Shown: piece by piece, positions 13,765 to 46,275 of the stretch | Position numbering within the stretch: position 1 is the stretch's first letter | Layout of the letters: every line of letters starts with the position of its first letter | Notes under the pieces: generated by a model | What the model was told of the DNA's origin: nothing | Database searches by the model: none | The model's input: only the letters and a program-made list of their open reading frames with translations | NCBI RefSeq assembly: GCF_965216085.1 | Contig: NZ_OZ244138.1 | Location: 5,121,377-5,185,376 of the forward strand | DNA: 64,000 nucleotides | DNA from: Roseibium sp. | Lineage (GTDB): Bacteria > Pseudomonadota > Alphaproteobacteria > Rhizobiales > Stappiaceae | Direction of reading: 5' to 3' | Program-made: the position numbers and the translations under genes

Positions 13765-13803
13765 TCTAGTTTCGATAATGACAAACACAGCACTGTATCA
13801 ATA

Positions 13804-14184: not shown

Positions 14185-14240
14185 GATTTTTGAGGCTTAA
14201 CGGAAATAGCCAGATTCAATATGATATCGAAGGAAGAAAA

Positions 14241-14270: not shown

Positions 14271-14342
14271 GCTTCTTCCAGGTTTTGGAAGAATGGGAAT
14301 CCCATCTCGCACAACATGATCTTAATGATCTGAGGTGCGGTG

Positions 14343-14771
14343 ATGAGAAGTATAGATAACGATTACAATAAGATATCCAAAAACAAGAAGACAAAGAAGG
14401 ACCCACCGTTCTCCCTGCGGCTGACGTTTGAAGAGCGCGCAAGGCTTGAAGAGCTGGCAGGCGATGAACCACTCGGTTCATATATCAAGCGAAAAGTGTT
14501 CGACGGAAAAGGTACGGGAACGAAAAGGGCGCGTTCACGCACTAGAAGGCCTATCAAAGACGAGAAAAAGCTGGCCTACGTCCTCGGTATGCTTGGTCAG
14601 TCCCGTCTTGCAAACAATCTCAATCAGCTCGCAAAAGCCTCTCACATGGGCACTCTACCCGTGTTGCCTGACACCGAACGGGATATCCGCCGTGCCTGCG
14701 CGGATATTGCGTTCATGCGGCGCGAATTGATGCGCGCTCTCGGTTATAGAACAGATACGGAGCCGTCATGA
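14343..14771 (+). CDS. mobC: MobC-like relaxosome accessory protein (ribbon-helix-helix)
   Basis: FSLRLTFEERARLEELA is an RHH beta-strand plus helix, and the NNLNQLAKASH motif is typical of MobC-family proteins. The gene overlaps the relaxase start (ATGA). Confidence 0.7.
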   Translation: MRSIDNDYNKISKNKKTKKDPPFSLRLTFEERARLEELAGDEPLGSYIKRKVFDGKGTGTKRARSRTRRPIKDEKKLAYVLGMLGQSRLANNLNQLAKASHMGTLPVLPDTERDIRRACADIAFMRRELMRALGYRTDTEPS

Positions 14772-16180
14772 TTTTAAAGGGCTCCCAGCGCGGTGGCGCA
14801 AAACAGCTTGGTCTTCATCTTCTCAAAACCCAGGAAAATGAACATGTCGAAGTTCACGACATCCGAGGCTTCATGTCTGAAGACATCGTCGGCGCGCTTC
14901 GTGAAGCCGAGGCGATTTCCAAAGGCACCAAATGTCGTCAGTACCTGTTCTCTGTGTCATTGAACCCACCTGAAAGTGAAACGGTACGGATTGAGACCTT
15001 TGAAAAGGCACTTGAGGCGATAGAAGAAATGCACGGGCTCGTTGACCAGCCACGAGTAATCGTCTTCCATGAAAAAGAAGGACGGCGGCATTGTCACGCA
15101 GTCTGGAGTCGGGTTGATGCCGAAACCATGACGGCAAAGCCTCTTCCCTTTTTCAAAAACAAGCTACAGGAAGTCTCAAAACAGCTCTATCTCGAGAACG
15201 GCTGGCAAATGCCACGCGGCTTGGTTGACAAGCAGAACCGTGATCCTCGGAATTTTACCCTCGCTGAATGGCAACAGGCAAAAAGGGTCGGGCGGCATGC
15301 TGGCGAGATAAAAGGGTTGATCCAGGAAGCCTGGGCAATCTCCGACACGCGCCAGACCTTCTCGCACGCGCTGGAGGAGCGGGGTTTTTACCTTGCCCGT
15401 GGCAATCGTCGCGGTCACGTCGCCGTAACCTTCGAAGGTGAAGTGATTGCGATTCCCCGTGCCGTCGGCAAGAAAACAAAAGACGTCAAAGAGCGTCTCG
15501 GCAAATCTGAGGAATTGTGTAGCGTTGAGGAAACCCGACAACGGATCGCCCAAGAAATCCTGCCACGCGTGAAATCACACCTTGATGAGGCTCGGGGCAA
15601 AGCCAGGGTGGAAACTGGCGCTCTGAATGCTCGGCGTTCTTTGATGCTCAATAAGCACGTTGAAGAACGGGCAAGGCTTGATGCGGGTCAGAAACAACGG
15701 TTCGAGGATGAGGCACGCCAACGAGCGGATCGCTTGCGCAAAGGCGTTTTAGGACTGTGGGACAAACTGACGGGCAAACACGCCAAGATCCAAAAGCAAA
15801 ATGAAATAGAAACTATGTGGGCACTCCAACGCGATCGGGAACAACGGCACGCGATCCTTGCGTCCCAGATGCAGGAGAGGCGAGACTTGCAAGCCGAAAT
15901 CAAGGTCACTCGCAGCAAGCATGCACAGGCTCTGCTCGATCTTCATTCTGACACTGCCAATTACCGTTTGATGAAACGCGGTGAAGAGCCAAGGCCGAAA
16001 GCAAAATCCTCCTTCGATCGTTTGGACGACTTGCGCGAAAAAGCCAAGCAGCCAAAGACTCGGCAGACAGCAATCAGACACTCCGAATTTGAACGACAAC
16101 CCAGATCTCCAGGTGAGCGGCTTAAACGAGCGCGTGAGCGCAAGCAGCGGCAAGATCGCGGACCTGAGCTTGAACCATAG
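14768..16180 (+). CDS. relaxase/mobilisation nuclease (MobA/VirD2 superfamily)
   Basis: The N-terminus MILKGSQRGGAKQLGLHLLK...NEHVEV and the histidine-triad region HEKEGRRHCHAVWSRVD match conjugative relaxases. The C-terminal half is a basic coiled coil. Confidence 0.85.
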   Translation: MILKGSQRGGAKQLGLHLLKTQENEHVEVHDIRGFMSEDIVGALREAEAISKGTKCRQYLFSVSLNPPESETVRIETFEKALEAIEEMHGLVDQPRVIVFHEKEGRRHCHAVWSRVDAETMTAKPLPFFKNKLQEVSKQLYLENGWQMPRGLVDKQNRDPRNFTLAEWQQAKRVGRHAGEIKGLIQEAWAISDTRQTFSHALEERGFYLARGNRRGHVAVTFEGEVIAIPRAVGKKTKDVKERLGKSEELCSVEETRQRIAQEILPRVKSHLDEARGKARVETGALNARRSLMLNKHVEERARLDAGQKQRFEDEARQRADRLRKGVLGLWDKLTGKHAKIQKQNEIETMWALQRDREQRHAILASQMQERRDLQAEIKVTRSKHAQALLDLHSDTANYRLMKRGEEPRPKAKSSFDRLDDLREKAKQPKTRQTAIRHSEFERQPRSPGERLKRARERKQRQDRGPELEP

Positions 16181-16818: not shown

Positions 16819-17325
16819 TCACGCGCAATGAAAAATGAAATGCACACCCGCTATGGTGGCTTCGGAATAATCGACCGACAGATCGCGGGCGATAGCGTCA
16901 TAATCGATGTAAAATTGCAGGCTTTCGGGGATGTCGCCGTAAAGCCCTTCCTCAACAAATTGCTCTGCCAGCTCCCGCATGGATGATAGCTCATAAAGCG
17001 TTAGATCGATGCTGCTCGGATCATCTGCAACTTGTTCATGGGAATACCCGCACTCGCCGACTGCGATAATGTAGCGGTGTTTCTCGTCTTCATCCCAATC
17101 TTCAACGGCGTCGAAATAGGCTCTGAAATTCGCTTGATTGATGCCCCAGGCTCGCGCCAATGCGCAGTCAATGTCTTCCCCGTCGATGAATTGGATTTCG
17201 TATTCCTCGACGATCTGACCGCAATCATTTTCGTTGTATTTTGCTTTCGCCTCATAGTCCTCGGCACTCTCAAAACAAAAGTCGCAGGCTGAGATATCGT
17301 AGGGTTGTGCATGAAGAAGGATCAT
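16819..17325 (-). CDS. ardA: antirestriction protein ArdA
   Basis: Highly acidic 168-aa protein. The C-terminal block ELAEQFVEEGLYGDIPESLQFYIDYDAIARDL parallels Tn916 Orf18/ArdA (..YYIEETGALGEVPASLQNYIDYQAYGRDL) as remembered. Confidence 0.85.
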   Translation of the reverse strand: MILLHAQPYDISACDFCFESAEDYEAKAKYNENDCGQIVEEYEIQFIDGEDIDCALARAWGINQANFRAYFDAVEDWDEDEKHRYIIAVGECGYSHEQVADDPSSIDLTLYELSSMRELAEQFVEEGLYGDIPESLQFYIDYDAIARDLSVDYSEATIAGVHFIFHCA

Positions 17326-17784: not shown

Positions 17785-18444
17785 ATGAATCCTGATCTAC
17801 TGAAACTCGGTTTACGAAAGGAAGAAGCACTCAAGATGCCAAACAGCTCCAACGAAAAACCAACAGTCGGTATTTTGGCTTATGGTTCATTGATTTCCGA
17901 TCCGCGCGCTGAGATTGAGAAACACCGCACCGACACTATCAGAGATGTGATAACGCCTTTCCATATTGAGTTCGCGCGCCAAAGCAGAGGGCGCGGCGGA
18001 GCACCGACGCTGGTCCCCGTTACAAACGGCGGCGTTCACGTCACAGGCCAGGTATTCGTGATGGATTTGCCCGAAGCAGAAGCAGCCGACGTGCTCTACC
18101 GCAGAGAAATCGATGATGTCGGAGGGCACAAAACCTACAAGCGCCCGGCGACGGTCACAAAAAACAGTGTGCTTGTTGAACGCTTAACTAATTTCGCCGG
18201 ACTGAACGTTGTTCTCTACACAAAGATAGCGGCCACCATTGAGCCTCTCACGACGGAGAAGCTGGCTGAGCTAGCCATCGCGAGCGTGTCCAAAGCCGAT
18301 CCCACACGCGATGGCATTAGTTACCTGATGGCAGCAAAAGAGAACGGCATTGTGACATCCCTCTCACCAGCTTACGTAGCGGAAATTCTCCGAAAGATCG
18401 GATGCGAGACACTTGAAAAAGCGCTCGCCGAGCTCAAAGACTAG
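17785..18444 (+). CDS. gamma-glutamylcyclotransferase/ChaC-like fold protein (tentative)
   Basis: VGILAYGSLISDP is a YGSL-type N-terminal strand, and a later L..RE motif (VLYRREIDDVGG) resembles ChaC/GGCT catalytic elements. The start may instead be Met18 (17836). Confidence 0.45.
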   Translation: MNPDLLKLGLRKEEALKMPNSSNEKPTVGILAYGSLISDPRAEIEKHRTDTIRDVITPFHIEFARQSRGRGGAPTLVPVTNGGVHVTGQVFVMDLPEAEAADVLYRREIDDVGGHKTYKRPATVTKNSVLVERLTNFAGLNVVLYTKIAATIEPLTTEKLAELAIASVSKADPTRDGISYLMAAKENGIVTSLSPAYVAEILRKIGCETLEKALAELKD

Positions 18445-19595
18445 TCGCCATCGCGCCCGCGATAAACAACACCATGCTTAGTATAGGCATCCAACAACAG
18501 TTGCACATACTCTCGCGAACTGCCGGTGACATGCCCCAGCGCCGGCCAGGCGAACGGAAAGGTCATGCAGGTTACTGCCAGTTCCAGTTCCACGCCAAGC
18601 TTGTCTGCGACTGCAATAGCCTCCTCGGGCTCCTTATCTTCAGGCCATAGGTCTTCATCCAGGGTTATCCAGGCGTCGTTCTCGTCATCGACGTTTATCT
18701 CTGCCAACAGCGCACCAAACCTTTCTCCGGGATTAGTCGCATCTTCGAGCAACGCTGTTCGTAACAGCAAAGAAATGCTTTCCTCATCCAGCTTTAGCGT
18801 TGGCCGAGAATCTACGACTTCGACCTTGGGCTCCGGCCGCTGCTTTACAGCCGAACAATCAACGAGGTGCGGTTCTTCACTACTGCCTTCCAGCCACCAC
18901 GGTGAAGCGAAGATGTCTGTCGGCGAAGCGCCGCATCCCGGACAGTGCCAAAGATTGCCGGCAACTTGGGCCCCGGTGATTTCGCCATCACAATGAAGGC
19001 AAAACCAAACCTTAGATCGATCGCCTGTCAGGGGGTGCTCCACGGTTCCTTCAGCATCGGGCATGGTTGATCGTCTTGGCCAATCAGATGCGATGCCGGC
19101 CCGAACTTTTGCGACCTCTTCATCTGCAATCGCCAGCGCAGCGTCTATGAACTCGCGGCCATTGGCCGGATTATCTTTGCTGTGCGTTGCCTCGATTTCG
19201 ACAATGGGCTGCGAAAGATCAGCTTCTCCCATCAGAATGCTCCATCCGGTGCCTTCCAACCGAATGTCGCCTAGTGACTCAAAGACATGGTATTCGTGAT
19301 CTCCGATCTTGCCATGCCTGATCGGCTCATCGGCGGGACGAGTCATCATTTTTTCAATGAACATTTCCTCCTGATCTAGGCTTGGATGAGACCGCCGGAC
19401 AAAGGCCTTAGCGGTAGCAAGGTCGTCGTTACTAGGTGTCCAACCGTTTTTGGCCTTGGTCGCCAAAGACGTCCAGCTCGGGAATTCCAATTGGGCAGCA
19501 ACGGCGTTGAGCGCTTCGTATTTGGGGAGTCGGCAGGCGTGCGCGTAACGCTTTGCCAGCAGTTTAAGTTGTTTGATTTGAGTATCTTTTGTCAT
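18441..19595 (-). CDS. hypothetical protein with a central zinc ribbon and an acidic C-terminal half
   Basis: 384-aa ORF containing CLHCDG...HCPGCG (a 4-Cys ribbon). No other motif is recognisable. Its 3' end overlaps the convergent GGCT-like gene by 4 nt. Confidence 0.5.
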   Translation of the reverse strand: MTKDTQIKQLKLLAKRYAHACRLPKYEALNAVAAQLEFPSWTSLATKAKNGWTPSNDDLATAKAFVRRSHPSLDQEEMFIEKMMTRPADEPIRHGKIGDHEYHVFESLGDIRLEGTGWSILMGEADLSQPIVEIEATHSKDNPANGREFIDAALAIADEEVAKVRAGIASDWPRRSTMPDAEGTVEHPLTGDRSKVWFCLHCDGEITGAQVAGNLWHCPGCGASPTDIFASPWWLEGSSEEPHLVDCSAVKQRPEPKVEVVDSRPTLKLDEESISLLLRTALLEDATNPGERFGALLAEINVDDENDAWITLDEDLWPEDKEPEEAIAVADKLGVELELAVTCMTFPFAWPALGHVTGSSREYVQLLLDAYTKHGVVYRGRDGD

Positions 19596-20004
19596 GATCC
19601 ACTCCGAAATGGGATCCGACTAGGTGCCCGCTACTAACCAGATCCCGAAATTGGACTGGAGTTTTAAAGTATCGATAAAAGTGCTGCGTAGCTTCGCGTG
19701 GCGGACACACAGGCATGCACCAAAGGCCAATTCGACCGTGCCGGATTCATCAAAGCCCGTCAAGTTGTACTCAAAGATGCCGGGGATCGTGGCCGTTGCA
19801 TCGAGTTCGCCAAGCTGAAATGGGAATGGGTTTTAGCTTTGCTGAAGCCCTGCCCTTTGGCAAGAGTGGAAATGGACGGCAAATAAGGTAAATCAATACC
19901 GATTAATTTATTGAAAAGACTAGGAGAAAGTTCTTTCCAAATGAGCCAGTAAGAAAATTTAGCGATTTTTTTATATTCATATTTCTGAAGCTTCGCTAAA
20001 AGAG

Positions 20005-22470
20005 CTAGCTTCCTACCTTTTTCTTTATCAAGTCATAGCGGAGATCGCCGCAGACGCAGTTCAACGATTGAGGTGCTGGGCCTGCATAAGTTAATCGCAG
20101 TAAGCTCCCACATGTCTTACACCTGACTTGAGCAAGGACTTCGTCAAACGCATCCACAATTGTCTTAAACTCCTTCGGCTCGAAATTTTCCCAGGCATTG
20201 AAATGGACCGCTGGATTGACGCCCCACGCTTCGACATTGCATTGCGCGTGCGCCTTCTCGAATTCAGAAAGCGTCTGCCCAATTGCCTCTTCCAATTCGG
20301 CTTTCCCCCAACTGTTTGCTGCAGCTTTTGCCTCCTTCAGCCTTTTTCGAATAGCAGACAAGGCAGGAGGGAGCGTGTCGTTCAAGGTGAACTGACCATC
20401 TGCCCGAAAGGGAACCGATGCTCTGAGATTATCGCACAACAGATAGCCGACATGCTCAAGATAGTGACGCAGCCTGCCTGCTGCAGTTTGCACATCCCCT
20501 TGTTCCAAAGCTTCACGCACACGCGCCATCATGTCAGCGTCATTGTAAATTAAAGGGCCAGTATCGACGGTCCATCCGCCGAAGGTTACTGCGTTTACGA
20601 TCAAATTCTCAGACCGCATGAAATTGAGCCAAACGCGGTCATGCGTCGTCATAACAAACTGCGTGTTTGGGAATTCCTTTTGTAGCAGATGACAAACCTG
20701 CCGACGGTGGCCTGTATCCACCGACATCAACACATCATCAAGGACGCAAAAACGAAAATCGTCACCCAAAATCTGCCGCATAAGTGCGAGATATAGGCAC
20801 AAACCCATTCCGTCTTGGTGACCCTCGGAATGGAATGCCCCGGGGGGGAACTTTCCTCTACCGTAAAAGTCGACATCAAGGTTGAGCTTGGCAGGCCCGG
20901 GCGTCAACGCACCTTCGAAATTCTCTTCGTCGCCTTTGTTGAGCTGTTTGTAGTAAGAGGCGAAATTGTTTTGCACAGACTCGTAAATACCATTCAGCTC
21001 TTTCAAGCTGACTTCATCGAATGTCGCTTTTGCAGCTCCGGCAATGTCGGCGTGGCTTGCGGCATTCCGAGCATCTGTGACGGCTTGAACCCAAAGTTCA
21101 TAGCGTTCTTGGGCCAGAATAAGTAATTCTTCAGCTTTGTCTGCTTCGGATATGTCAGGCAGTTTTTCGATTGCCTGAACCAAGGTCTCACACGCAGAAA
21201 TCGCTTCCTCGGAATCCTCTATCCAGCAGTTCTGCAGCACCTCGATTGCAGATATCATTTCCTCATCGGAATTCGTCGCTGTTCCCAGAGTTGTGTTTAT
21301 CTGTTCTAGACGCTCCACCTCATTGCGAAGCGCATTCTGTATGTCTGTACATTTGAGCTGGCCGGCACGGTCTGCGGCAACGCTCAAAGCTGCGATTTGA
21401 CTCTGTATTTGCTGGCGGACGATCAGGACTGCTTGCGAAATATTTTTGATTGCTTCGTTTGCGGCTTCAGCCGACTTTAGTTTTGCCTCTAGATGATCGC
21501 GCAGCTCTTGTTGGTCCCAATGTTTATCGCACAAGGGGCAACCGTCATCATCAATTAGGGGTAAACCAGTCCTTACCAGAACATCTTGACGAACCGCGCG
21601 CCATGCTTCTGCATCCGATTGCAGGTCTTTAAGGGATGTCGCCGCATTGGTGCGAGCCTCTAAGAGAGCACCCAGTTCAGAACGCATCGCGTCGAGCAAG
21701 AGCTGCGATTCCTTCAAAGCTAGATCTTTGGGAATAGCGTGCGTTTTAGCCGAGCCTTCCTTCATCCCTTCCTTGAAATTGGTATCACCTTTCAACTCCG
21801 CGATTTCTTTCAATTCGAGCGTTTTACGGTGCTTATTCACGGCTGCGAGGATCGTTTTGGCTTTCGTATTTTCAATGCCAAGTCCGCTAGCAAAATGATT
21901 GCGGGCATTCTGGGCCTTCGTAGCCGTTGCGTCTTTTTCAGAGTTTGCGCGATTACTAACTGTCGTCAGGGATTTTCGAATTGCATCGAGGCGATCAAGG
22001 CGCAGAAGGGTCTTCACGTCTTCATCGCGTTTACCAGCAGGTGTTATGATGTATTTGACAATGTCGCGCCGGGAGAGGGCAAATTCCGGATGCCGCTCAA
22101 GTTCCTGAACGGCGGCGCGGGTTTCATCGTTTGCAGGTTCGATTTTCGGTTGGCGCGGCTTTGCAACGCTTCTTTGGATGGTCAGCTTTTGTCCGCTTGC
22201 CGTCAGTATACCTTTGATTGTAACGCAGGCTTTGTCCGAGTTCGCACCGGCATCTACGTGGGGACCGTGCTTGCCAACAGTCAGCTCATCGGATCCAGCC
22301 CCGGTGAGGCGACTGATGGATCCGGTTAGTGCAAATTCAATGGCATCGACAACGCCGCTCTTACCGGTCCCGTTTGGACCGAATATGCCAAAACGCTTGC
22401 CCGCAGGCATAAGCTCTAGCTGTTTGATGCCTCGAAATTGTTCGATATTGATACTTTCGATCTGAATCAT
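20005..22470 (-). CDS. Rad50/SbcC/SMC-like ABC ATPase with a CxxC zinc hook and a C-terminal zinc-ribbon domain
   Basis: N-terminal IEQFRGIKQLEL...FGPNGTGKSGVVDAIEFALTG (Walker A). A long coiled coil carries CPLC at aa 311-314 (nt 21529-21540). Then come the signature-like SEGHQDGMG, Walker B FCVLDDVLMSVD and H-loop TTHD. A further ~200-aa domain ends in CKTCG...CVCG. Confidence 0.8.
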   Translation of the reverse strand: MIQIESINIEQFRGIKQLELMPAGKRFGIFGPNGTGKSGVVDAIEFALTGSISRLTGAGSDELTVGKHGPHVDAGANSDKACVTIKGILTASGQKLTIQRSVAKPRQPKIEPANDETRAAVQELERHPEFALSRRDIVKYIITPAGKRDEDVKTLLRLDRLDAIRKSLTTVSNRANSEKDATATKAQNARNHFASGLGIENTKAKTILAAVNKHRKTLELKEIAELKGDTNFKEGMKEGSAKTHAIPKDLALKESQLLLDAMRSELGALLEARTNAATSLKDLQSDAEAWRAVRQDVLVRTGLPLIDDDGCPLCDKHWDQQELRDHLEAKLKSAEAANEAIKNISQAVLIVRQQIQSQIAALSVAADRAGQLKCTDIQNALRNEVERLEQINTTLGTATNSDEEMISAIEVLQNCWIEDSEEAISACETLVQAIEKLPDISEADKAEELLILAQERYELWVQAVTDARNAASHADIAGAAKATFDEVSLKELNGIYESVQNNFASYYKQLNKGDEENFEGALTPGPAKLNLDVDFYGRGKFPPGAFHSEGHQDGMGLCLYLALMRQILGDDFRFCVLDDVLMSVDTGHRRQVCHLLQKEFPNTQFVMTTHDRVWLNFMRSENLIVNAVTFGGWTVDTGPLIYNDADMMARVREALEQGDVQTAAGRLRHYLEHVGYLLCDNLRASVPFRADGQFTLNDTLPPALSAIRKRLKEAKAAANSWGKAELEEAIGQTLSEFEKAHAQCNVEAWGVNPAVHFNAWENFEPKEFKTIVDAFDEVLAQVRCKTCGSLLRLTYAGPAPQSLNCVCGDLRYDLIKKKVGS

Positions 22471-22664
22471 AGCTCAGTTTCCTCTTGGGGCGGAGGAAAC
22501 AACGCGTCGTCAATTCGTTTGGCAGTAGGCGCCGCATCGTCAAGCATGACTGCCATAAGGCGGTCTCTTAGCTCCTCGCTTCCGACGTCTTTTTGAGCAA
22601 GCGCATCGGTATACGCGCTTATTACCTGCTCTACGACGGGAGATTGCGACTTTGCTTTTGCCAT
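22467..22664 (-). CDS. small hypothetical protein (65 aa), translationally coupled to the SMC-like ATPase
   Basis: Its stop overlaps the ATPase start (ATGA, 22467-22470). The sequence is acidic and helical, with no recognisable motif. Confidence 0.5.
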   Translation of the reverse strand: MAKAKSQSPVVEQVISAYTDALAQKDVGSEELRDRLMAVMLDDAAPTAKRIDDALFPPPQEETEL

Positions 22665-22762
22665 CTGTGTCTCTGGGTTGTTTTATTTGTATTTACGATT
22701 GCGTATGCAGCTAATAATTGCAAATATAACGATACGAACAAATTTTGATGATCGAGCAACGT

Positions 22763-25042
22763 TTAAGTTCGTAGTAAATTTGAGAACAGGCTTATCAAAT
22801 CGTCGTCATCAAACTTTTCGTTGCCTTGCCGCCTCGATGGTGAAAATCCGGTGCTGCGTTCCTCGTGATCGGACTCCTCAATTTCCGATATTCGGTCAAA
22901 CACCACTGATTTCGCCTCTTCAGGATCGCGACCGGTGAGTTTTGCGAGTGAATCCAGATAGTCTAGATGCTCGGTAAGACTGTCTTCGGTATCCAGATGG
23001 GATATGGCTTCTCCAGTGTTTGAAAATTCATACTCTATGGCATTTCCAAGGGCGTGTCCGGCAGGCGTAAAAGGCGTAAGAAATGTATCGGACATATACT
23101 CCTGAACACTCTCAGTAACGCTGACAAGCTCATCGGGCGGAAGTCCGTCTTCAATCACGTTTGTCAAACGTGCTTCAATAGCTTCCAAAAGCGTCTGTTT
23201 TTGTGAAACGTCGTCATCGACAAAATTACTCACCCACCAGTGAAGTTGTGGAAGGTCTCGCCCATCCCGCCACGAATTCAAACGCAATTTACTGGTGGCG
23301 AGCATAGATAAAGCCTTTTCGATATACTGCTCTTCACCGCAAGCTTCCCACCATTGAAGCAGCATTTCCGCCCGATCTGCTAGCGAAAGGTCGTCAGCCG
23401 AATAGCTTGCATATCCGTACCGCATGGATTTTTTCATTGATGGCGTGGCATCAATCATCTGGGAATATGAGCCAAACGCGCTGGCGAATTTCTTTTGGAT
23501 TTCAGGGTGAGACTTAAAAACTTCGCAGACGTGCCGCCATAGGTGTTTTGCCCAATCTGCTCTCCTGGCGGTTGCGGGCAAAAGCTCCAGAAATTCTTTC
23601 TCGATAAGGTACGACTTCAGGAAATCCCGGACGGAGGGATTAACAAAGCTAACAGTTTGGCCGGAAATAGAGACAAAACCGGATTCCAAAGATTTTAATG
23701 CGTCTTCAAAATCCCCTGGCTTTGTCGGCTGTCCATAGTGACCGCAAACAATCCGATGCAGTTTCGAAAAATTTTCACTCAATTCATCGACTTCTTGTCC
23801 ATATTCCGAGCCAAAGAACAGTGCGACCAGAAGGTTTTGCGACTTCATATCCAATGCGCGATATGGCTTACTCCAAACAAGTTCGGGATTTTCAAGGGCA
23901 TGATAGATGTAGCCAGGATAATCCGAAGGCTTCATTACATCGATGCTGTCACTCGACACGGACGCGATAATTCGGGGATTGTAGTTTTTATGGTCCACGA
24001 TCTTTTTCAGCCAATCGCCAACCAACAAAGCCTCAAAATGCTCCTGTTTTAGTTCGGATGCCGATAAGTGATTGAACAAGATTTGCGATCTGATTTTTCT
24101 GGTGTAAGCGCCGACATCTAGAATATATTTGGCGAGCTGTAATTTCTTGTCGTCAACGTGATCTGATAATCTTCTGGCTTCTTCGAAAATATGCGCCCTC
24201 GTGGTGAGGACGAACCGTGAATTCTTCGAACGTCGAATTCTGTTTACGAATGTCGCAAGTGCGGTATCGCGTTGAAGAAGCGATTGGCGGTCTAATTCAA
24301 TCCGCCCCAAAAAATCATCGAAGAAGAATACCGTTGGTTTTCCGTCATCGACCTTGGCAAATCCTTCTTCTAGCGAAGTAATGGCATAGAATTTCCACCC
24401 TTCTTCAAGATATTGATAGGATATCATTTTTGCTAGGGTCGTTTTGCCGACACCAGGAGGCCCTGAAACGATCAGGATTTTCTGGTCTTCGAGTCGTTTT
24501 GTGGCTTCTTCGAAGCTCGGATTTCGGACATACACACGAAGGTCGTCCAGAATCTCTTCTTTCGTTGCCTGCGTGAAAGCCTCAAGACCGGAATTGAGAA
24601 TGCGCTCCAAGACAGCAGTGCTGGATAGCCAGAGCTTGATGTGGGATTTTTCGATTTCCGGATATCGTGTGAGGGCTCCTTCAATATCTTCTCGCCCCCA
24701 GATATCCTCCGGCTGCTGGAGAATGCCGCTGGCGATCTCCGCAAGAGTATTGCTCTTTTTTTGCGTCAGCGACTGTGATGTAAAAAACAGATAACGTTTC
24801 GGCTTGAGATCGGAGACCTTCAGAACTTCCTTTTTGAGAGACGATTTCAGCGCCGTAAAAGTCGAGCCAATGTAATGCTTGCATTGCAGGATGGTCGCGT
24901 CCGCACCCCTTGAATGACGACCGTCTATTCCACCGTCCGGCCCTGGACCGAACGCTGAAAATCTTTTGCCGGTGTCCGCTTTGGCGATGTCGCGGCAAAG
25001 TTCCTCGAAATCGATGTGCGATAAGTTCTCAAGTCTCGACAT
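22763..25042 (-). CDS. Mrr-like restriction-endonuclease domain fused to a STAND-type P-loop NTPase
   Basis: The N-terminus FEELCRDI...GPDGGIDG...ILQCKHY is an Mrr_cat-type PD-(D/E)xK core. Walker A is SGPPGVGKTT (aa 193-202) and Walker B is VFFFDDFLG. A roughly 450-aa helical C-terminal region follows. Confidence 0.75.
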   Translation of the reverse strand: MSRLENLSHIDFEELCRDIAKADTGKRFSAFGPGPDGGIDGRHSRGADATILQCKHYIGSTFTALKSSLKKEVLKVSDLKPKRYLFFTSQSLTQKKSNTLAEIASGILQQPEDIWGREDIEGALTRYPEIEKSHIKLWLSSTAVLERILNSGLEAFTQATKEEILDDLRVYVRNPSFEEATKRLEDQKILIVSGPPGVGKTTLAKMISYQYLEEGWKFYAITSLEEGFAKVDDGKPTVFFFDDFLGRIELDRQSLLQRDTALATFVNRIRRSKNSRFVLTTRAHIFEEARRLSDHVDDKKLQLAKYILDVGAYTRKIRSQILFNHLSASELKQEHFEALLVGDWLKKIVDHKNYNPRIIASVSSDSIDVMKPSDYPGYIYHALENPELVWSKPYRALDMKSQNLLVALFFGSEYGQEVDELSENFSKLHRIVCGHYGQPTKPGDFEDALKSLESGFVSISGQTVSFVNPSVRDFLKSYLIEKEFLELLPATARRADWAKHLWRHVCEVFKSHPEIQKKFASAFGSYSQMIDATPSMKKSMRYGYASYSADDLSLADRAEMLLQWWEACGEEQYIEKALSMLATSKLRLNSWRDGRDLPQLHWWVSNFVDDDVSQKQTLLEAIEARLTNVIEDGLPPDELVSVTESVQEYMSDTFLTPFTPAGHALGNAIEYEFSNTGEAISHLDTEDSLTEHLDYLDSLAKLTGRDPEEAKSVVFDRISEIEESDHEERSTGFSPSRRQGNEKFDDDDLISLFSNLLRT

Positions 25043-25159
25043 GGCTTTTGCGTTAATGATTCCAGGAACATATTAAGGATGCGTCACGTTCGTTCCAAGT
25101 AATTTCGTACTATCAGGAATTGTGAGGTTGTTCCATTCCTCCAATTACAGCGGTTCGGC

Positions 25160-26193: not shown

Positions 26194-27720
26194 ATGTCAG
26201 ACAACCCCAAATCGAATGAAACTGAAATCACCCGCGCGGCGAATGAAGACCTATCAAGGGAAGCGGAGATTGTGACAGGGAACGTCAATGCAGCCCTGGC
26301 TCAAATCAACGAGGACCTGGGGAAAGAGGGGGCGGTCGGTGCGTTGGCCCGCGGCAAAATCTTCGAACTCACAAAGCATAGCGAGTGGGCAGCCAGATCT
26401 TACGAACTTGCTTACAGCCTCGATTCTACGAACCTTGAACCGTTGGCGCGCTTGATTGTCGCTCTCATTCACTGCGGAAAATTTCAAGATGCTCTCAACC
26501 ACTCATACCAGCTTACCGCAAAGGACCCGGCTTTTGCGGTCGTTTCATTGTGCCAGGGAGAACTGTACAGTTCGCATACACTTCTTGCGGAGTCACTGCT
26601 GTTAAACGATATGATCGATGAAGCTCGGGCTTCGTTTAACGAAGCACTGAAAATAAATCCTGAGGATTCCCTATCTGCTGGCAGAATGGCCCAGATTAGC
26701 CTCTCGGATGGGGAGATTGAGTCCGCCATCGAACTCGCAGCCAAAACTGGTGATTCTCCTCGGTTTAAGCAGTTGCGAGCAATGGCAACATTGGCTTCGC
26801 GAAACAGCTCAACCGTACCGTTCCTAAAGATTGAGACGATCCAAGAACTTGCTGGAACTGCTTCATCCGCCGTTGGTAGGCCCTTGTCGGTGGATGGCTC
26901 TCGCGTGAGAGCCACGGTGAATACTGAAACGGATTGGGGTGCATCATCAACTCCCGCTTCAAGTCATGCTTTGCCGCGAGACGTCGCCGAGCACTGGGAC
27001 GCTATTGCAATGGAGGAGCATTCATCAATCGCCTCGTTTGCACGGCTACTCCTCGAATTCATGCACTTCGGTGTACCAGCCAGCCTGGTGGACGAAACAA
27101 TTGCCGCAATGGCCGACGAAACCGACCATGCTCGCGATGCGTTAAAGATTTCCAGCCGCCTAAAAGGAGAAAACACAGGAGCGGGCACTCTTGATGTTTC
27201 CAATGTGTTGACGCGAAAGCCAGCTCTGCGGACGTCTGTTAGGGAAGCGCTCTTTGAAGGCTGCATTAGCGAAACGATTGGGGCTCTCGCCGCTCGAAAG
27301 GCAGCGGAAACATGCAAAGACCCGGAAATAAAGAAGACGATGCAAAAGATTTCAAGCGACGAATTGCGGCATGCGGAAGTAGCTTGGCATTTTATTGAGT
27401 GGGGCCTCGAGCTCGAGCCGACGCTAGTCGATGAGTTGACTCGGTTTTTGGAACTTTCGCTGGACGAATTAACGGAAGCGAGCATGTCGAACTGGCCGGC
27501 CAGCGCTAAAGAACCAACGCCTGACTATGGCGCGCTTAATCGTGAACAAATGGCAGAAGTGTCACGCGAAACCTTTTCTGAGTTCTTTTTACCGCGAATA
27601 AAGAAAATAATCTCCGCTGTTGAGCAAAAGAAACAACACTCACCAAATCTCGCATTAGAGCCGAAAAACAATGCCGCTGAACTTATCTCAATTTCTCCTC
27701 AAACGACACTTATCGATTGA
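26194..27720 (+). CDS. TPR-repeat protein fused to a ferritin-like (diiron, ExxH) domain
   Basis: GGAGG RBS upstream. The N-terminal ~230 aa are TPR-like. The C-terminal half has EEHSSIASFARLLLEF, DETDHA, EGCISET and DELRHAEVAWHF, which are paired E/ExxH ligand motifs as in 'ferritin-like domain-containing' proteins. Confidence 0.7.
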   Translation: MSDNPKSNETEITRAANEDLSREAEIVTGNVNAALAQINEDLGKEGAVGALARGKIFELTKHSEWAARSYELAYSLDSTNLEPLARLIVALIHCGKFQDALNHSYQLTAKDPAFAVVSLCQGELYSSHTLLAESLLLNDMIDEARASFNEALKINPEDSLSAGRMAQISLSDGEIESAIELAAKTGDSPRFKQLRAMATLASRNSSTVPFLKIETIQELAGTASSAVGRPLSVDGSRVRATVNTETDWGASSTPASSHALPRDVAEHWDAIAMEEHSSIASFARLLLEFMHFGVPASLVDETIAAMADETDHARDALKISSRLKGENTGAGTLDVSNVLTRKPALRTSVREALFEGCISETIGALAARKAAETCKDPEIKKTMQKISSDELRHAEVAWHFIEWGLELEPTLVDELTRFLELSLDELTEASMSNWPASAKEPTPDYGALNREQMAEVSRETFSEFFLPRIKKIISAVEQKKQHSPNLALEPKNNAAELISISPQTTLID

Positions 27721-28777
27721 TGCGATAACGGAGGGGCTTTGTGCTGCTTTGGGCTTTGAATATGGTGATATCCTGATTGCTGTTGGATCGCTCGCAGAAG
27801 AACTGGGAAACGAGCGATCCGACTTCGACATCATGCTCGTCACCTCACGCACGAACTTCACATTTACCTATCCAAACGTCATCGTGGCCACAATCGCGGA
27901 CATCACAGTTGATATCGCTGTTGTTCAAAATAGTTGGGCAACGCAGACGATAAACAAAATAAAGAGCTTTGGAGATAACTACACTGACCCTCGAAACGCA
28001 GGTGAATTCTCAAGGCAAGAAATACAGTTCCTTCACCGCGTGTGTAACTGTATGGTACTTGCCGGGCACGATTCCGCGAGCCAGTTGAGGGCTCAAATCG
28101 CCTTCTCCCATCTAATTAGACAGCGGTTCTCAAACGCGTTTCACGAACTCAAGTGCTTGGTGGTTGATCTCGTCGGGTTCGAAGAGGAACGGGATTGGCA
28201 GAGTTGCATAATGGTCGCTCAGTTAATCTTAGATTACTCCATTGAATGCTTACTTGCATCATTTCAGTTAACTAATCCAAGCGCTAAGTGGCGAGCGAGA
28301 CTGCTGGGAAAGATCCCGCAAAACTGGGAAGATCGTTTACCTGGAGCGTTCTCAAAAAGGAGCGCTATCACAGTCTATTATGACCTACTGCGTTCACCCA
28401 CAACCATCGATACAGAGAGTGCACAAATTTATTGTAATAAGATCTGCTCGTTTATGCGGAAAGTTTTAGCTTTAGGCAGTTGGCGCACTTCAAACGATAA
28501 AAATGATACTGATCTTCGTTGGTATCGTGGCGAAACAGGTGCATTAGAAACGTTTCCTGTTCTTGATAGTTCGATTTTCTTTTATTATCAGGAAGAAACC
28601 TTCATCGGCTTCAATCTAAGACACAAAGAGCCGTATCTCCACAAGCTCTCTCCCAAGGACGTCGGCTTATTGTGCTACTATGACGGTGGGACGCACGCCG
28701 TCCGTTCAACACCCGCTGTAGCTGAAATGGCCAAGAAATTGGGGATTTTGCAGCCATTGCGAGACGGTCCATCATGA
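27671..28777 (+). CDS. nucleotidyltransferase-fold (Pol-beta superfamily) protein
   Basis: GSLAEELGNERSDFDIMLV is the GS...D.D minimal NTase motif, followed by a helical C-terminal domain. The start is uncertain. ATG 27671 overlaps the upstream gene by 50 nt, and TTG at about 27749 has a GGAGGGG RBS. Confidence 0.6.
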   Translation: MPLNLSQFLLKRHLSIDAITEGLCAALGFEYGDILIAVGSLAEELGNERSDFDIMLVTSRTNFTFTYPNVIVATIADITVDIAVVQNSWATQTINKIKSFGDNYTDPRNAGEFSRQEIQFLHRVCNCMVLAGHDSASQLRAQIAFSHLIRQRFSNAFHELKCLVVDLVGFEEERDWQSCIMVAQLILDYSIECLLASFQLTNPSAKWRARLLGKIPQNWEDRLPGAFSKRSAITVYYDLLRSPTTIDTESAQIYCNKICSFMRKVLALGSWRTSNDKNDTDLRWYRGETGALETFPVLDSSIFFYYQEETFIGFNLRHKEPYLHKLSPKDVGLLCYYDGGTHAVRSTPAVAEMAKKLGILQPLRDGPS

Positions 28778-28789
28778 GAGTGAGGTGAC

Positions 28790-29752
28790 ATGGATAACGT
28801 AGTGGAGGCATTGCTTATTGAAATTGGGGGAACAAACATACGAGCCAAGCTGCAAGGCAAAGACCTAAAGTCTGAGATGGTTATAGCGAAGACCAATTCT
28901 TTCAAATCCCTTTGGCAAGTGATTAACAGATTCAAAAACTTGTTTCGTCTACCAAATAGTCTCAGTAGCGAAATCAATATCAAAGTGGCTGCAGCCGGCT
29001 GCCTTCATAATGGGCGTTTCCTTTCTGACGACATTAAGTGGTTGAATCGAAGCCACGAGGAGTTAGCGGACGAAACTCAGAAACTTGGTTTTCGCTTGCT
29101 ATTCATAATGAACGATATGATTGCTACTTCTAATGGATGGTTAGCTAGGGAAGTAGCTCGAGTTGGTTGTTCAGAAGTATCATGTCCAATAGGTATCGTA
29201 GGCATTGGTACCGGATTTGGTGTCTCATCAATTCATCGCATTTCAGAAACCCAGTTTCTTATCCTAAGCTCAGAGTTGGGTTTTCTCCCAGTCAGTCCTA
29301 GCAAAACGACTCGCATACGAGACGTAGTTTCTGGACGCGCAATAAATGCGGCATCAGTACTCACTAAATCGAGCATAAATGAGCAAACATGCATTGATGG
29401 CAGCATTACAACCGTCGACGACTATTGGCAGGAAAGAAACACTGATCCCGATTTTTTGGATCATTTTCGTTGGTCGGTACTCGCACCTATACTCAGCCAA
29501 AATCTCCAGAAAATAGTAATTGTGGGCGGTGCTGCGTCGATTCTTCGATCTCAAGGAATAATTTCGCCTGAGGACTTAAAGCAGAACTTCTCAAACCGCA
29601 ACATTGGCAGCATACAACCCATGATTAATGACGTAGACGTTTCCTTTGACAGCTCAGAGGACCTTGCTCTGTTTGGTATGACAGAGAGCATTGGCAGAGT
29701 TTCACAGGACTTCTTAGCTACTAAAAATCACTCGCTAGTAGTTGGCTACTGA
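28790..29752 (+). CDS. glucokinase-family (ASKHA) sugar kinase
   Basis: IEIGGTNIRA matches the Glk block DVGGTNARLA, MNDMIAT matches INDFTAV, and GIGTGFGVS matches GAGTGLGVA. A GAGGTG RBS lies upstream. Confidence 0.7.
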   Translation: MDNVVEALLIEIGGTNIRAKLQGKDLKSEMVIAKTNSFKSLWQVINRFKNLFRLPNSLSSEINIKVAAAGCLHNGRFLSDDIKWLNRSHEELADETQKLGFRLLFIMNDMIATSNGWLAREVARVGCSEVSCPIGIVGIGTGFGVSSIHRISETQFLILSSELGFLPVSPSKTTRIRDVVSGRAINAASVLTKSSINEQTCIDGSITTVDDYWQERNTDPDFLDHFRWSVLAPILSQNLQKIVIVGGAASILRSQGIISPEDLKQNFSNRNIGSIQPMINDVDVSFDSSEDLALFGMTESIGRVSQDFLATKNHSLVVGY

Positions 29753-29758
29753 TACGAG

Positions 29759-39304: not shown

Positions 39305-39707
39305 GGGCTGTCACAAAAAATATGTTTGACAAACGTGAGACTTTTCTCTCACGCTTATAGTTAATGGGATCATCCAACTAGCTCTCCCAAGAGCAAGATT
39401 CCAATACTTGGCATTCGTCATAGAAAGCTAAGTAAAAGCCATAAGGACAGGTATGCTGTCCATTCTTGGAGGTGAAAGACCTCTGCACCGCACGCGCGGT
39501 GCGATGCGCTGAATGGCGGCGCGGGCAAAAATCAACAGAGCCGGGGCATGAGCCAGGGTTCACCGAGTGTTTGAACGACCAACGTTCAAACACCCGGAGG
39601 CTAAAGCTGTTTTCAATTTGGTTTCCCGATGTTGGGAAGAACACGGTCAGGGAAGAAGGAATTTCAGCGGAAGGGTCAAGGAGCGAAAAGGAAAGGGAGC
39701 AACAGAA

Positions 39708-41495
39708 ATGATCCTGTTGGTTGTCTCGGAAGTTTGTCAGTTCGCGGTGACACTCATCGTCTTCAACTTCGTTGCGAGGACGCTCACCTTCTCGACCCTA
39801 AAATTCTTCGGGGCGTATGACCCTCGGTGGGATCTCAAATGGCCCCGTTTCCCGTGGCGCTGGGTCTGGCTCAATGTCTGGATCAGGTTCGGGGAATGGA
39901 TCGAGGAGAATTTCAAAAGCGGCAAAGCCACGGGTGGACTGACGGGGTCTGTCACGCAAATAGCGCTTACGTTTGAACCAAACCAAAGCCTCATCGGGCA
40001 AGCGCGGCTTCCTCTCGGTATCAGGCACTACAGTCTGGTAGGTGAGAAGTCCGAGCGCCACAAAGTCTTTGTTGCAAGCGCTCGTTCTGGGAAAAGCCTT
40101 CAGCTGCAAACCGAACTTGCTTTGATGCCTGACGATGCCAGGGCACTGGTCATCGACCCAAAAGGCGACCACACGCGCGACATCCTTTTTAAAGCTGAAG
40201 AAAACGGTCACGAGCTCTGTGTGCTCGATCCCCTTCGGATTACGGAACGCAGGAACAAGATCTGCCTGTTGATGCAGATCCAGCTCGTCAATAAACGTCT
40301 GGGCGAGGATCGCACAACGATGATGTGCGATCGGATCGCCAGCCTGTTTTTCCCGCACAATCCGCAAGCCAAGAACCCATACTTTGACGACACCGGGCGT
40401 GAGGGCTGGGCGCGCATGATGTGCTTTGTCTTGCACAAATACCCCACTGGAACGTTGCTGGATGTGCGCCGTCTGTTCGCCCGCGGTTATAATGAGGATG
40501 CCCCTGATGATCCCGAATTGGCCTTTGGGATGCTTTGGGAGGAAATGCTCGATTGCAATATCTACGATGGCTATGTGTCTTCGTTTGCGGCTGACCTCCT
40601 CAGTATGGATGAGCGCACACGCGCCAACGTTCTTTCAACTATCCGAAGCAAAACCGCTTTTCTTGACCACCAGCAGGTCAAAGACGTTTCTTGTGGCAAT
40701 GACGTCAATCTTTGCGATCTGAAGAACCCGGATAGCAACCTCATTATCTCCATCCCCGTGACGGTCGGCGACATGAAGACGACCTTACGCCCCTGGGTGA
40801 GTGCCATTGTCTCGCTGTCCTTGGCAATCATGGAGTGGATACCCGGAGACCTGAAGACCAAAACCCGGTTCGTCATCGAAGAAGCTCAGGCAATTGGTCA
40901 AACAGCGCTGCCTGGAATGGGTGACAAGGCTGCTCTTATGGCGGGGATGGGCGTGTCCCTTATCGTCGTCACCCAGGATTGTGCTGGTTTCAAAAAGAGC
41001 TTCCCACAAGACTGGCTTTCCATCATTGGCAATGCCCAGCACGTCATCTTTATGGCCTGCAATGATCATGAGACCTACGAGTATGTTTCTGACAAATCGC
41101 TCGGAATGAAGACGGTCAAACGAAAGAAATGGCACATCCCTTTTCTTTGGACGGTCTCAAGTTTTGAAAAGCCCGTCATGACACCTGACCAGGTGCGCCG
41201 TTTCCTTGAGGCCAAGAAGGGCTCAGCGATAGTGATGCGCAATGGCAAGCGCTCGATGTTCGTGAAGATCGCCAAGAGTTATCAGGTGCTGCCTGTTTGG
41301 CTGATCAACCCATCCAAAGACCACGGCGAGACAAGAGCCCGCGCGTGGTTCCGCTCTGTTTGGGAAGACTGGACATCCCGAAGGAACGAACAGGGCAAAC
41401 TGGTTGCCACCTCTACTCCCCGACTGCTGCCGAGTGATGAAAGCAAGCTGGACGCACTGCATTTGTCCACCCGGCCATCATCCTCCAAACACTGA
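39708..41495 (+). CDS. type IV coupling protein-like ATPase (VirD4/TraG family)
   Basis: N-terminal TM helices are followed by Walker A-like ASARSGKS, then VIDPKGD and Walker B-like RFVIEEAQAIG, then SLIVVTQDCAGFKKSFP. A GGGAG RBS precedes ATG 39708. The longest-ORF start at 39567 was rejected. Confidence 0.75.
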   Translation: MILLVVSEVCQFAVTLIVFNFVARTLTFSTLKFFGAYDPRWDLKWPRFPWRWVWLNVWIRFGEWIEENFKSGKATGGLTGSVTQIALTFEPNQSLIGQARLPLGIRHYSLVGEKSERHKVFVASARSGKSLQLQTELALMPDDARALVIDPKGDHTRDILFKAEENGHELCVLDPLRITERRNKICLLMQIQLVNKRLGEDRTTMMCDRIASLFFPHNPQAKNPYFDDTGREGWARMMCFVLHKYPTGTLLDVRRLFARGYNEDAPDDPELAFGMLWEEMLDCNIYDGYVSSFAADLLSMDERTRANVLSTIRSKTAFLDHQQVKDVSCGNDVNLCDLKNPDSNLIISIPVTVGDMKTTLRPWVSAIVSLSLAIMEWIPGDLKTKTRFVIEEAQAIGQTALPGMGDKAALMAGMGVSLIVVTQDCAGFKKSFPQDWLSIIGNAQHVIFMACNDHETYEYVSDKSLGMKTVKRKKWHIPFLWTVSSFEKPVMTPDQVRRFLEAKKGSAIVMRNGKRSMFVKIAKSYQVLPVWLINPSKDHGETRARAWFRSVWEDWTSRRNEQGKLVATSTPRLLPSDESKLDALHLSTRPSSSKH

Positions 41496-43145: not shown

Positions 43146-43156
43146 GGAGAACAATC

Positions 43157-44662: not shown

Positions 44663-46264
44663 ATGAACACAAACACAAAGAAGGAAAGCGAGGTTCAATC
44701 GGCGTTAATTTACTGCCGCGTATCTTCAACAAAGCAGAAAACAAGCGGCTCAGGCCTGGAAAGCCAGGAACACCGCTGCCGTCAATATGCGCAAGAAAAG
44801 AACTATCATGTCGAAATGGTGTTTCCAGACGACGTAAGCGGTGGTGGAGACTTTATGCAACGCCCGGGAATGCGGGCAATGCTGGCCTATCTCGATGCGC
44901 AAAAAGACAAGTCCTATGTCGTCATCTTCGATGATCTAAAGAGGTTTGCCCGCGATACGGAGTTCCACATAAGGCTTCGACGGGAGTTTGATGCACGCGG
45001 GGCGTCTATTGAGTGTTTGAACTTCAATTTTGAAGACACACCCGAGGGTCGCTTTATCGAGACCGTTATCGCGGCACAAGGGCAGTTGGAACGCGAACAA
45101 AACCGCCGCCAGGTTATTCAAAAAATGAAAGCACGCCTTGAGAAGGGCTACTACGTCTTTTGTCCGCCAGTTGGCTACAAGTACGGCAAAGACCGGCTTC
45201 ACGGTAAAATTCTGATCCGCGACGAGCCGGCTGCAACTTACGTGACTGAAGTCCTGGAAGGGTACGCCAACGGCCTCTTTAGTTCTCAGACTGAGATTGG
45301 CCGTTATCTGGAATCAAAGCCGGACTTTCCGACTGGAACCGCTAACGGCAAGATGCGGATCACAAAAGTCACTGAGATGCTGGAGTGGCCCACTTACGCA
45401 GGCTATGTCGAGGCTGCCAAGTGGGAAGTCTCGCTTCGAAAGGGCCACCATGAGCCGTTGATCAGCTTCGATACCCATGAACGCATTCAAAAGCGACTTA
45501 AAGGCGTGACAACCGCACCTGCGTGAAAGGACATTAATCAGGACTTTCCACTGCGCGGCTTTGTGCTGTGTGATGATTGCGGCGAGCCACTGACGTCCTG
45601 TTGGAGTAAGGGACGCAACAAGCGCTATCCCTATTATCTGTGCGACACGCCTAACTGCCCTTCAAAACGCAAATCGGTTCCACGTGCCAAGATCGAGCAA
45701 GGGGCTGAAGATATTCTGAAAGGCCTTCAACCAGGCAAAAAGCTGTTTGAGCTGGCGAGAACCATGTTTATCGACATATGGGAAATGCGCCATGTCGAGG
45801 CTGAAAACGCTCAGAAGGCCCTGAAAAAACAAGCAAATGACGCCCAGAAGGAAATCGACAAGCTGCTTGGGCGCATTTTGGACGCTACAAGCTCCACATT
45901 AATCAACACGTATGAAGCCAAGATCGAAAAGCTGGAACGAGACAAGATTCGCCTCACAGAACAAGCCGATCGCTGTATCCCTCCCAGAGGACACCTGTAG
46001 GAATTTATCGAACACGCTCTAATGTTCCTGGCAAGTCCTTGGGATTTATACAAAAAAGGCAGTTTTGCACTCAAGATAACGGTGTTGAAATTGGCCTTTG
46101 CAGAGCCTCTAAGATATAGCCGGGAAAACGGTTATCGAACCGCTAAAACAGCCTTTCCATTCAAGGTGTTAGCGGATTTTAACTTGCTAAAGTGCGGTAT
46201 GGTGGAGCCTAGGGGAATCGAACCCCTGACCTCTTCGCTGCCAGCGAAGCGCTCTCCCAGCTGA
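44663..46264 (+). pseudogene. large serine recombinase with two in-frame stop codons
   Basis: Resolvase domain with the catalytic Ser (LIYCRVSSTKQ). After TGA 45524-45526 the same frame continues KDINQDFPLRGFVLCDDCGEPLTSCWSKG...YPYYLC (recombinase zinc ribbon). After TAG 45998-46000 it continues EFIEHALMFLASPWDLYKKGSFALKITVLKLAFAEPLRYSRENGYRT (conserved tail). All three pieces share one reading frame. Confidence 0.8.
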
Positions 46265-46275
46265 GCTAAGGCCCC
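46200..46275 (-). tRNA. tRNA-Ala (anticodon GGC)
   Basis: The reverse complement is GGGGCCTTAGCTCAGCTGGGAGAGCGCTTCGCTGGCAGCGAAGAGGTCAGGGGTTCGATTCCCCTAGGCTCCACCA. It folds as a cloverleaf with the G3:U70 Ala identity pair, anticodon loop CT-GGC-AG, a GTTCGATTC T-loop and an encoded CCA. Confidence 0.9.

Follow-up and report, generated by a model that had tools for sequence, protein, structure and literature searches.

A Mrr-nSTAND3 nuclease gene and a two-gene zinc-hook ATPase module adjoin as separate cassettes in a Roseibium mobile island

Three co-oriented genes of Roseibium sp. (contig NZ_OZ244138.1) raise the question of whether a nuclease-bearing STAND NTPase and a Rad50-like ATPase are parts of a single defence system or belong to different ones that have come to lie side by side. 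They were studied within a stretch of 64,000 nucleotides (positions 5,121,377 to 5,185,376 of the contig, forward strand), referred to here as the window, whose first letter is position 1. In minus-strand order the genes are A (22763..25042), which encodes a 759-residue protein with a Mrr nuclease domain, an nSTAND3 NTPase and a putative helical C-terminal region; S (22467..22664), which encodes an acidic protein of 65 residues; and B (20005..22470), which encodes a coiled-coil ABC ATPase of 821 residues that is Rad50/LmuB-like, bears a zinc hook and has a private C-terminal domain. A spacer of 98 nucleotides (22665..22762, minus strand) lies between A and S, and S is translationally coupled to B, its stop codon overlapping the B start codon in the motif ATGA (22467..22470).

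A preliminary description of this locus, made from its letters alone, had reported the three open reading frames (ORFs), the 98-nucleotide gap and the ATGA overlap, as well as Mrr and STAND domains in A and an SMC/Rad50-like ATPase with a zinc hook in B. All of these are confirmed, the domains being Mrr_cat and nSTAND3 in A, and SMC_N/AAA_23 with a CPLC zinc hook in B. Two explanations had been offered, namely a mini defence island of two adjacent defence genes, or one Lamassu-like system in which a STAND nuclease replaces the effector LmuA. The analysis favours the former: we put at roughly 0.72 the probability that the block is a small defence island within an integrative mobilisable element, in which two genetically independent cassettes, A and S-B, have been joined in this Roseibium genome.

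Separate homology blocks of A and S-B

Nucleotide comparison (blastn) resolves the locus into two DNA blocks, one (25065..22778) matching the locus of an A homologue of 87% identity (L081) and the other (22723..20000) matching the locus of a B homologue of 85% identity (L085). The junction between the blocks falls in the 98-nucleotide spacer, which comprises both the cassette junction and the 5′ region belonging to S-B: about 59 nucleotides upstream of S are conserved with L085, where the adjoining gene is a different one. Each of these relatives lacks the other cassette. The A homologue of L081 is found among helix-turn-helix (HTH) genes, HipBA and a MmeI-type enzyme, without S-B, and the B homologue of L085, on a long contig, has its own 65-residue S and a divergent Metallophos and AAA_27 pair alongside, without A. 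The separate DNA homology blocks and the position of their junction therefore indicate that A and S-B were joined in this lineage.

The same separation is seen across genomes. A scan of one genome per species detected B relatives in 433 of 185,579 species genomes, spread over many phyla, and 80 loci were fetched for neighbourhood analysis. No A relative occurs within 8 kb of B in any of these 80 B-family loci, either by BLAST or by profile hidden Markov model. In the reverse test, carried out on 79 A-family loci from metagenomes, a genuine B was encountered in only one (L158). Conservation of the trio across genomes, which would have been expected of a single system, is thus not observed, and the separate homology blocks, the absence of each cassette from the closest relative of the other and the count of 0/80 bear out the proposal of two adjacent defence genes.

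Gene A is an independent single-gene STAND nuclease cassette of the PDC-S73 candidate family. It matches the PADLOC model PDC-S73 over nearly its full length (E 2.4e-130, 434.6 bits; residues 5-668 aligned to model positions 7-670 of 752), and PADLOC gives this family its single-gene ‘S' label. PADLOC PDCs are phage defence candidates predicted by guilt-by-embedding and not experimentally tested; a literature search found no mention of PDC-S73. Homologues of A are full-length proteins of about 755 residues sharing 55-87% identity. The Mrr_cat PD-(D/E)xK nuclease domain (24767..25030, minus strand; residues 5-92; PF04471, E 1.1e-5, 25.9 bits against a cut-off of 21) retains D36, D40, Q53 and K55 as invariant residues in the A-family alignment. 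It is followed by the nSTAND3 P-loop NTPase (24062..24532, minus strand; residues 171-327; PF20720, E 1.7e-48), with the Walker A motif GPPGVGKTT and the Walker B motif FFFDD, in which G194..K200 and D242-D243 are invariant. The remaining C-terminal region of about 430 residues is conserved over its whole length in the same alignment.

These results argue against a Lamassu-like system with a STAND nuclease in place of LmuA, given that B conserves no LmuA-type gene and that A is a near full-length PDC-S73 protein. As for correspondence to an already named single-gene system, only A shows it; B has a partial match to LmuB, and S has none.

The S-B pair and its genomic context

The sequence of B contains SMC_N (E 1.2e-16) and AAA_23 in Pfam. 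Its best PADLOC match is the LmuB model PDLC03859 (E 9.8e-27, only 92 bits), which is covered end to end by residues 1-619, and nothing in NCBIfam scores above cut-off; none of Pfam, PADLOC v2 and NCBIfam has a name for B. The Walker A motif, G31-PNGTGK-S38 (22357..22380, minus strand), has invariant G31, N33, G34, G36, K37 and S38, and the C-lobe (20638..20832, minus strand) shows, likewise in invariant columns, a signature-like HSEGHQD (547-553), a Walker B VLDD (576-579) and an H-loop THD (609-611). The VLDD sequence fits the hhhhDD Walker B type described for long LmuB. The zinc hook C311-P-L-C314 (21529..21540, minus strand), whose C311, P312 and C314 do not vary among 61 sequences, is placed by an AlphaFold2 model between long helices at the apex of a coiled coil, and B probably dimerises through it. 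The full-length model (predicted local distance difference test score, pLDDT, of 80) has a Rad50/SMC-like fold: a Foldseek search with it gives Rad50 as best match (E 1.9e-9), then SMC heads and JetC, and no Lamassu chain among the top 50 matches. A B sequence profile run against the Protein Data Bank (PDB) similarly retrieves PtuA, SMC and Rad50 heads only.

Beyond the ATPase lies a C-terminal domain of about 180 residues (20008..20553, minus strand; residues 640-821), predicted with good confidence (pLDDT 87.8) as a helical bundle and a zinc ribbon, C784-x2-C787/C805-x-C807. R668, E672, W749, N752, H756, W760 and N762 are invariant in this domain and the four cysteines are conserved. It has no Pfam or PADLOC match, and Foldseek finds no PDB structure at E <= 0.001 (best E 0.22). 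A profile of the domain detects 874 clusters at 50% identity; among 150 matches listed, its place is at the C-terminal end or close to it, the proteins having for the most part about 820 residues and the shorter ones being probably fragments. An R-x3-E ... H pattern within the domain presumably resembles the triad of PrrC and RloC. Identity with the RloC/PrrC anticodon nucleases was considered and rejected: AAA_13 (PF13166) has no match on B, homologues stay below its cut-off of 36 bits, at 25-33 bits, and match model positions only up to 585 of 713, so that the C-terminal region is never covered, and neither Pfam, PADLOC nor fold comparison connects it with these enzymes.

The small gene accompanies the ATPase with great regularity. 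A short ORF (about 58-70 residues) abuts B in 74 of the 80 loci, with a 4-nucleotide overlap in 64 of those 74. S has a pI of 4.3 and its family is acidic throughout (median pI 4.6); in the family alignment a hydrophobic pattern that would fit helices is conserved, as are an RL motif and, at the C-terminus, an ALF motif. A profile search with S yields 204 clusters, all of 57-91 residues, and includes two distant members that are followed by B remnants with the 4-nucleotide overlap kept. In these two loci (L167, 5001-5830; L168, 5001-5632) B is cut to 218 and 152 residues beside insertion sequence (IS) transposases, and they are decaying copies of the S-B module. S itself matches no family in Pfam, PADLOC (LmuC models included) or the PDB. 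The preliminary description had suggested a kleisin-like bridging subunit or a regulator; the 65-residue protein does prove to be a dedicated partner of the ATPase, but its assignment as a kleisin, or as LmuC, is not supported by any family match, and a single match to JetA (E 0.034 over 34 residues) is not significant.

No third gene is conserved with the pair. The biggest cluster of neighbouring proteins is represented in 8 of the 80 loci, at variable positions, and among 136 immediate neighbours no Pfam family is found more than 4 times. A co-oriented ORF ends within 60 nucleotides upstream of S-B in only 12 of 68 loci, and these tight upstream ORFs are mutually unrelated (HsdM, AAA_27, a helicase-REase, Schlafen and DUF2130). 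A hidden, variable LmuA upstream of S-B was rejected on these grounds. Because S is kept in 74 of the 80 loci and no third gene is conserved, S-B is taken as a self-contained two-gene module, of which a literature search found no description.

The surroundings of S-B are rich in genes of known defence systems. Among the immediate neighbours in the 80 loci are BrxL, PglX, QatA and QatD, a CBASS cyclase, Hhe, DrmMI, HmaB, mad2, mad8 and type I and type IIG restriction–modification (RM) genes. The B family is also found on 24 plasmid records, haloarchaea included, 7 of which are predicted to be conjugative; on plasmids the S-B copies are annotated only as ‘AAA family ATPase' and ‘hypothetical protein'. 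A Roseibium plasmid carries S-B with DarT on one side and a RES toxin on the other, a gene with a TIR domain lying some 5 kb off, and on the Halorhabdus tiamatea plasmid pHTIA (L087, 5805-8469) it lies co-oriented inside an annotated BREX-5 system, between pglX and pglZ, its archaeal B sharing 30% identity with that of the window. No B homologue was found on phages. Across distant phyla and into haloarchaea the B family holds 38-45% identity. This context is characteristic of a defence cassette that is accessory and horizontally mobile.

Such a context bears directly on a non-immune explanation, in which S-B would be an accessory DNA-repair or element-maintenance module, that is, a minimal Rad50-like end-tethering or processing factor carried on plasmids and islands. 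Its patchy occurrence at an identity so well maintained over distant phyla, its variable neighbours rich in defence and toxin genes, the embedding of the pair in BREX-5 and the IS-disrupted copies, which show it to be dispensable, make this explanation distinctly improbable, even though Rad50 and SMC are the closest folds of B, no effector domain is recognisable, and the automatic annotation of the Prokaryotic Genome Annotation Pipeline (PGAP) attaches a ‘double-strand break repair' Gene Ontology (GO) term. The presence of B on plasmids and its absence from phages would also suit a repair function, as would the one locus (L085) that adjoins an SbcCD-like pair of Metallophos and AAA_27 genes.

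ABC-type ATPases beside A-family genes

Several observations speak for some connection between A and S-B. A and S-B are co-oriented and only 98 nucleotides apart, with no terminator-like site between them; the spacer (22665..22762) likewise contains no sigma-70 consensus, in a scan that gave no promoter-like site in the whole region. The single A-family locus with a genuine B (L158, a soil contig, 2-3611) is a second, independent adjacency of the two families in reversed gene order, where a B homologue (40% identity), present as its C-terminal part, is followed after 40 nucleotides by a same-strand gene for a 769-residue Mrr-nSTAND3 protein (36% identity to A). More generally, an ABC/SMC-type ATPase is an immediate neighbour in 18 of 48 independent evaluable A contexts, and ABC-type genes account for 20 of 123 adjacent and 7 of 229 non-adjacent genes in A loci (odds ratio 6.2, p 2.4e-5). 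Some of these A/ATPase pairs overlap in operon-like fashion (L109, L139). As regards S-B by itself, the lack of an effector domain recognisable in Pfam, PADLOC or Foldseek weakens its reading as a defence system.

The enrichment was looked at from several sides. When both sides of A can be evaluated, an ABC-type neighbour is present in 12 of 30 contexts. The test of adjacent genes, applied to B loci as a control, gives 1 of 67. The enrichment count is only partly corrected for relatedness of the loci. Shared embedding in other systems was addressed with a crude BLAST of four RM/BREX queries, which gave matches in only 3 A loci. The partners belong to at least four families. OLD-family nucleases, with a PDB match to 6p74/GajA, stand beside A-family genes in 14 of 57 independent groups; RloC-like ATPases with a CPFCQQ zinc hook do so in 5 groups, some overlapping the start of the A-like gene by 4-25 nucleotides; Lamassu-like three-gene operons, whose first gene is predicted to be Sir2-type, are found in L110, L113 and L141; and the fourth family is B itself, in L158 and the window. 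Examples of A-family loci with an ABC neighbour are L091 (4083-5912), L102 (628-2454), L109 (3445-5688), L139 (3722-5992), L113 (1981-5914) and L110 (8297-12209). In view of this enrichment, chance alone may not account for A and S-B lying side by side in the window.

A cooperation of A with S-B, in which Mrr-nSTAND3 proteins would be add-on partners of ABC/SMC-type ATPase sensors and S-B would be the partner in the window, is a looser form of the earlier single-system idea. The enrichment over the B-loci control, the diversity of partner families and the closely spaced co-orientation would all be in keeping with it, and WonAB and PD-T4-4 offer validated precedents as pairs of an ABC ATPase and a PD-(D/E)xK nuclease, in which the ATPase controls the adjoining restriction-fold nuclease. 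From the side of B, however, none of the 80 loci has an A relative, and about 60% of A contexts are without an ABC neighbour, that of the 87% homologue included. An A homologue of 88% identity (L088) abuts another ATPase, RloC-like and convergent; indeed, orientation varies among the pairs, which are convergent in L088, L090, L110, L130 and L141. S-B, moreover, retains its own conserved 5′ region, and the enrichment, being partly uncorrected for locus relatedness, could reflect shared insertion niches. We therefore regard cooperation of A with S-B as unlikely.

Neither does the enrichment rescue the replacement of LmuA by a STAND nuclease. The OLD partner matches nuclease-bearing OLD/GajA, and the true Lamassu-like operons abutting A-like genes retain what is predicted to be a Sir2-type LmuA, so that A fills no missing-effector slot there; these partners have a predicted effector of their own, orientations vary and most A contexts have no ABC neighbour at all.

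Island setting, proposed mechanism and known systems

Two independent cassettes within a small defence island remain the preferred explanation, and the surroundings of the block agree with the mobile setting that had been proposed for it. The window contains a MobA/VirD2 relaxase gene (14768..16180), a gene for a T4 coupling protein of the VirD4/TraG type (39567..41495) and a serine recombinase gene (44663..45526) that adjoins tRNA-Ala (46200..46275), and the element resembles an integrative mobilisable element inserted at this tRNA gene. Further markers of the island (12553-16180 and 37862-46275) are a ricin-type lectin gene, an IS (rve) transposase and an AAA ATPase, whereas the left 12 kb of the window consist of ordinary transport and chemotaxis genes. 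Two other statements of the preliminary description hold in part. The anti-restriction gene ArdA (16819..17325, minus strand; PF07275, 35.4 bits against a cut-off of 27), said to lie next to the block, is a real gene that belongs to the island context outside both cassettes, but it is 2.7 kb away, with two ORFs intervening. The difference in base composition from the flanks is only marginal, with a GC content of 0.47-0.50 for the block against 0.49-0.55 for its immediate flanks, and heterogeneity extends over the entire island (12-46 kb).

Downstream of B, a ChaC/GGACT-like gene (17785-18444, plus strand) is convergent to it. Its homologue (51% identity) in L001 (10467-11081) lies 3 nucleotides past B, and AIG2/GGACT-family genes lie 16-45 nucleotides past B, on the opposite strand, in L003, L016, L021 and L023, so that a gene of the ChaC/AIG2/GGACT type is found beside B in about three independent lineages. 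In the window the two are separated by a 384-residue ORF (18441-19595, minus strand) with a CxxC...CxxC motif. This ORF belongs to no family in Pfam or PADLOC, and none of the fetched loci contains a homologue; it may be an insertion, since the ChaC-like gene of L001 directly follows B. On the other side of the block, a cluster of low GC content (0.41-0.51) within the island (26194-36845) encodes a protein with tetratricopeptide repeat (TPR) and rubrerythrin-like parts, nucleotidyltransferase-like and glucokinase-like proteins, a protein that is acetate-kinase-like and has a PEP-utiliser mobile domain, a GTP cyclohydrolase II-like protein, an iron enzyme of the Haem_oxygenas_2 family and a RibD_C reductase. 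Together these have the look of an unusual pathway, small-molecule or nucleotide-derived.

How the two cassettes might act can be proposed by analogy. In A, following what is known of Avs proteins, the C-terminus would recognise an invader cue, whereupon the nSTAND3 NTPase would bring about oligomerisation and DNA would be cut by the Mrr-type nuclease. Lamassu and Rad50 have been shown to sense DNA ends or aberrant replication structures, and what a B dimer linked through its zinc hook would probably sense is invading DNA, by its ends or by aberrant intermediates of its replication. S would most likely bind B as a regulator or adaptor, its position just before the ATPase being likened to that of LmuC or of SbcD's C-terminal part. 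The output would probably run through the private C-terminal helical and zinc-ribbon domain of B, or through a recruited host factor. Taken as a whole, this scheme for S-B is possible but tentative. A bolder proposal combines two elements: that S-B is a self-contained immune module, made of a minimal Rad50/LmuB-like zinc-hook sensor, a 65-residue subunit and a new effector or signalling domain (the R/E/H/N/W pocket and the zinc ribbon), and that PDC-S73-type nucleases preferentially team with such ATPase modules. In this combined form we consider it rather doubtful.

The analysis removes a false positive, as the trio is not a Lamassu system with a STAND effector, and it delineates in S-B a clean, widespread two-gene family of bacteria and haloarchaea that resembles the sensor half of Lamassu or Rad50 without a known effector. 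If S-B is a defence system, it would offer a minimal model for the way in which zinc-hook SMC-like proteins convert DNA sensing to an output. The enrichment of ABC/SMC-type ATPases beside PDC-S73-type nucleases is, in addition, a lead on cooperation between defence modules.

Among known systems, Lamassu (LmuA-LmuC-LmuB, or DdmABC) shares several features with S-B. Like long LmuB, B is an ABC ATPase whose coiled coil has one CxxC zinc hook and whose Walker B is of the hhhhDD type, and S directly precedes it, as LmuC precedes LmuB. However, LmuA is missing, with no effector-bearing gene conserved by S-B in the 80 loci; S has only 65 residues and matches no LmuC model, although Lamassu systems without LmuC exist; and the LmuB score of B is low, its extra 180-residue C-terminal domain falling outside the model. 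Solved Lamassu chains are absent from both the sequence-profile (PDB) and the fold matches of B. Comparison with Rad50-Mre11 and SbcCD shows that Rad50 chains are the top structural matches of B, with the zinc hook similarly at the apex of the coiled coil, and the position of S may mirror that of the SbcC-binding C-terminal region of SbcD, which is encoded just before the ATPase. S-B differs in lacking a conserved Mre11/SbcD phosphoesterase neighbour in the 80 loci, as in the sole Metallophos case (L085) the gene is divergent and forms a pair with an AAA_27 ATPase of its own. The coiled coil of B is also much shorter than that of Rad50 and is combined with a private C-terminal domain bearing a zinc ribbon, and the distribution of B is accessory and horizontally mobile. 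B is close to RloC in length (about 800 residues), in its Rad50-like ATPase with a CxxC hook and in having an extra C-terminal domain; it differs by having no AAA_13 match and a C-terminal domain without a HEPN-like or other fold match. Furthermore, RloC is reported as a single-gene system, whereas S-B has a conserved small partner gene. Membership of MADS, an operon of eight genes (mad1-8) with mad6-8 mandatory, was rejected, as the matches are those of generic ATPases (B to mad3, 62 bits; A to mad8, 27 bits) and no such operon is present in the window.

For A the closest likeness is to Avs (AVAST) proteins and especially to Avs5, an experimentally validated system whose NTPase module is nSTAND3 (PF20720). 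Both combine an N-terminal effector, a STAND NTPase and a C-terminus in one protein and have nSTAND3 in common, but the effector of A is a Mrr nuclease and not Sir2. Matches of A to Avs models are at P-loop level only (for Avs4, PADLOC gives 14.3 bits and NCBIfam, with a cut-off of 1500, gives 13.1 bits). From its nuclease-nSTAND3-C-terminus organization and the nSTAND3 of Avs5, A is therefore Avs-like in layout, though without a match to any Avs model. WonAB is built differently from both cassettes: the nuclease WonB, of 16 kDa, has no STAND NTPase, and WonA, an OLD-type ATPase, lacks both coiled coil and zinc hook. Likened to the present genes by description and not by sequence, WonAB and PD-T4-4 are relevant as a precedent for the ABC ATPases that stand beside A-family nucleases.

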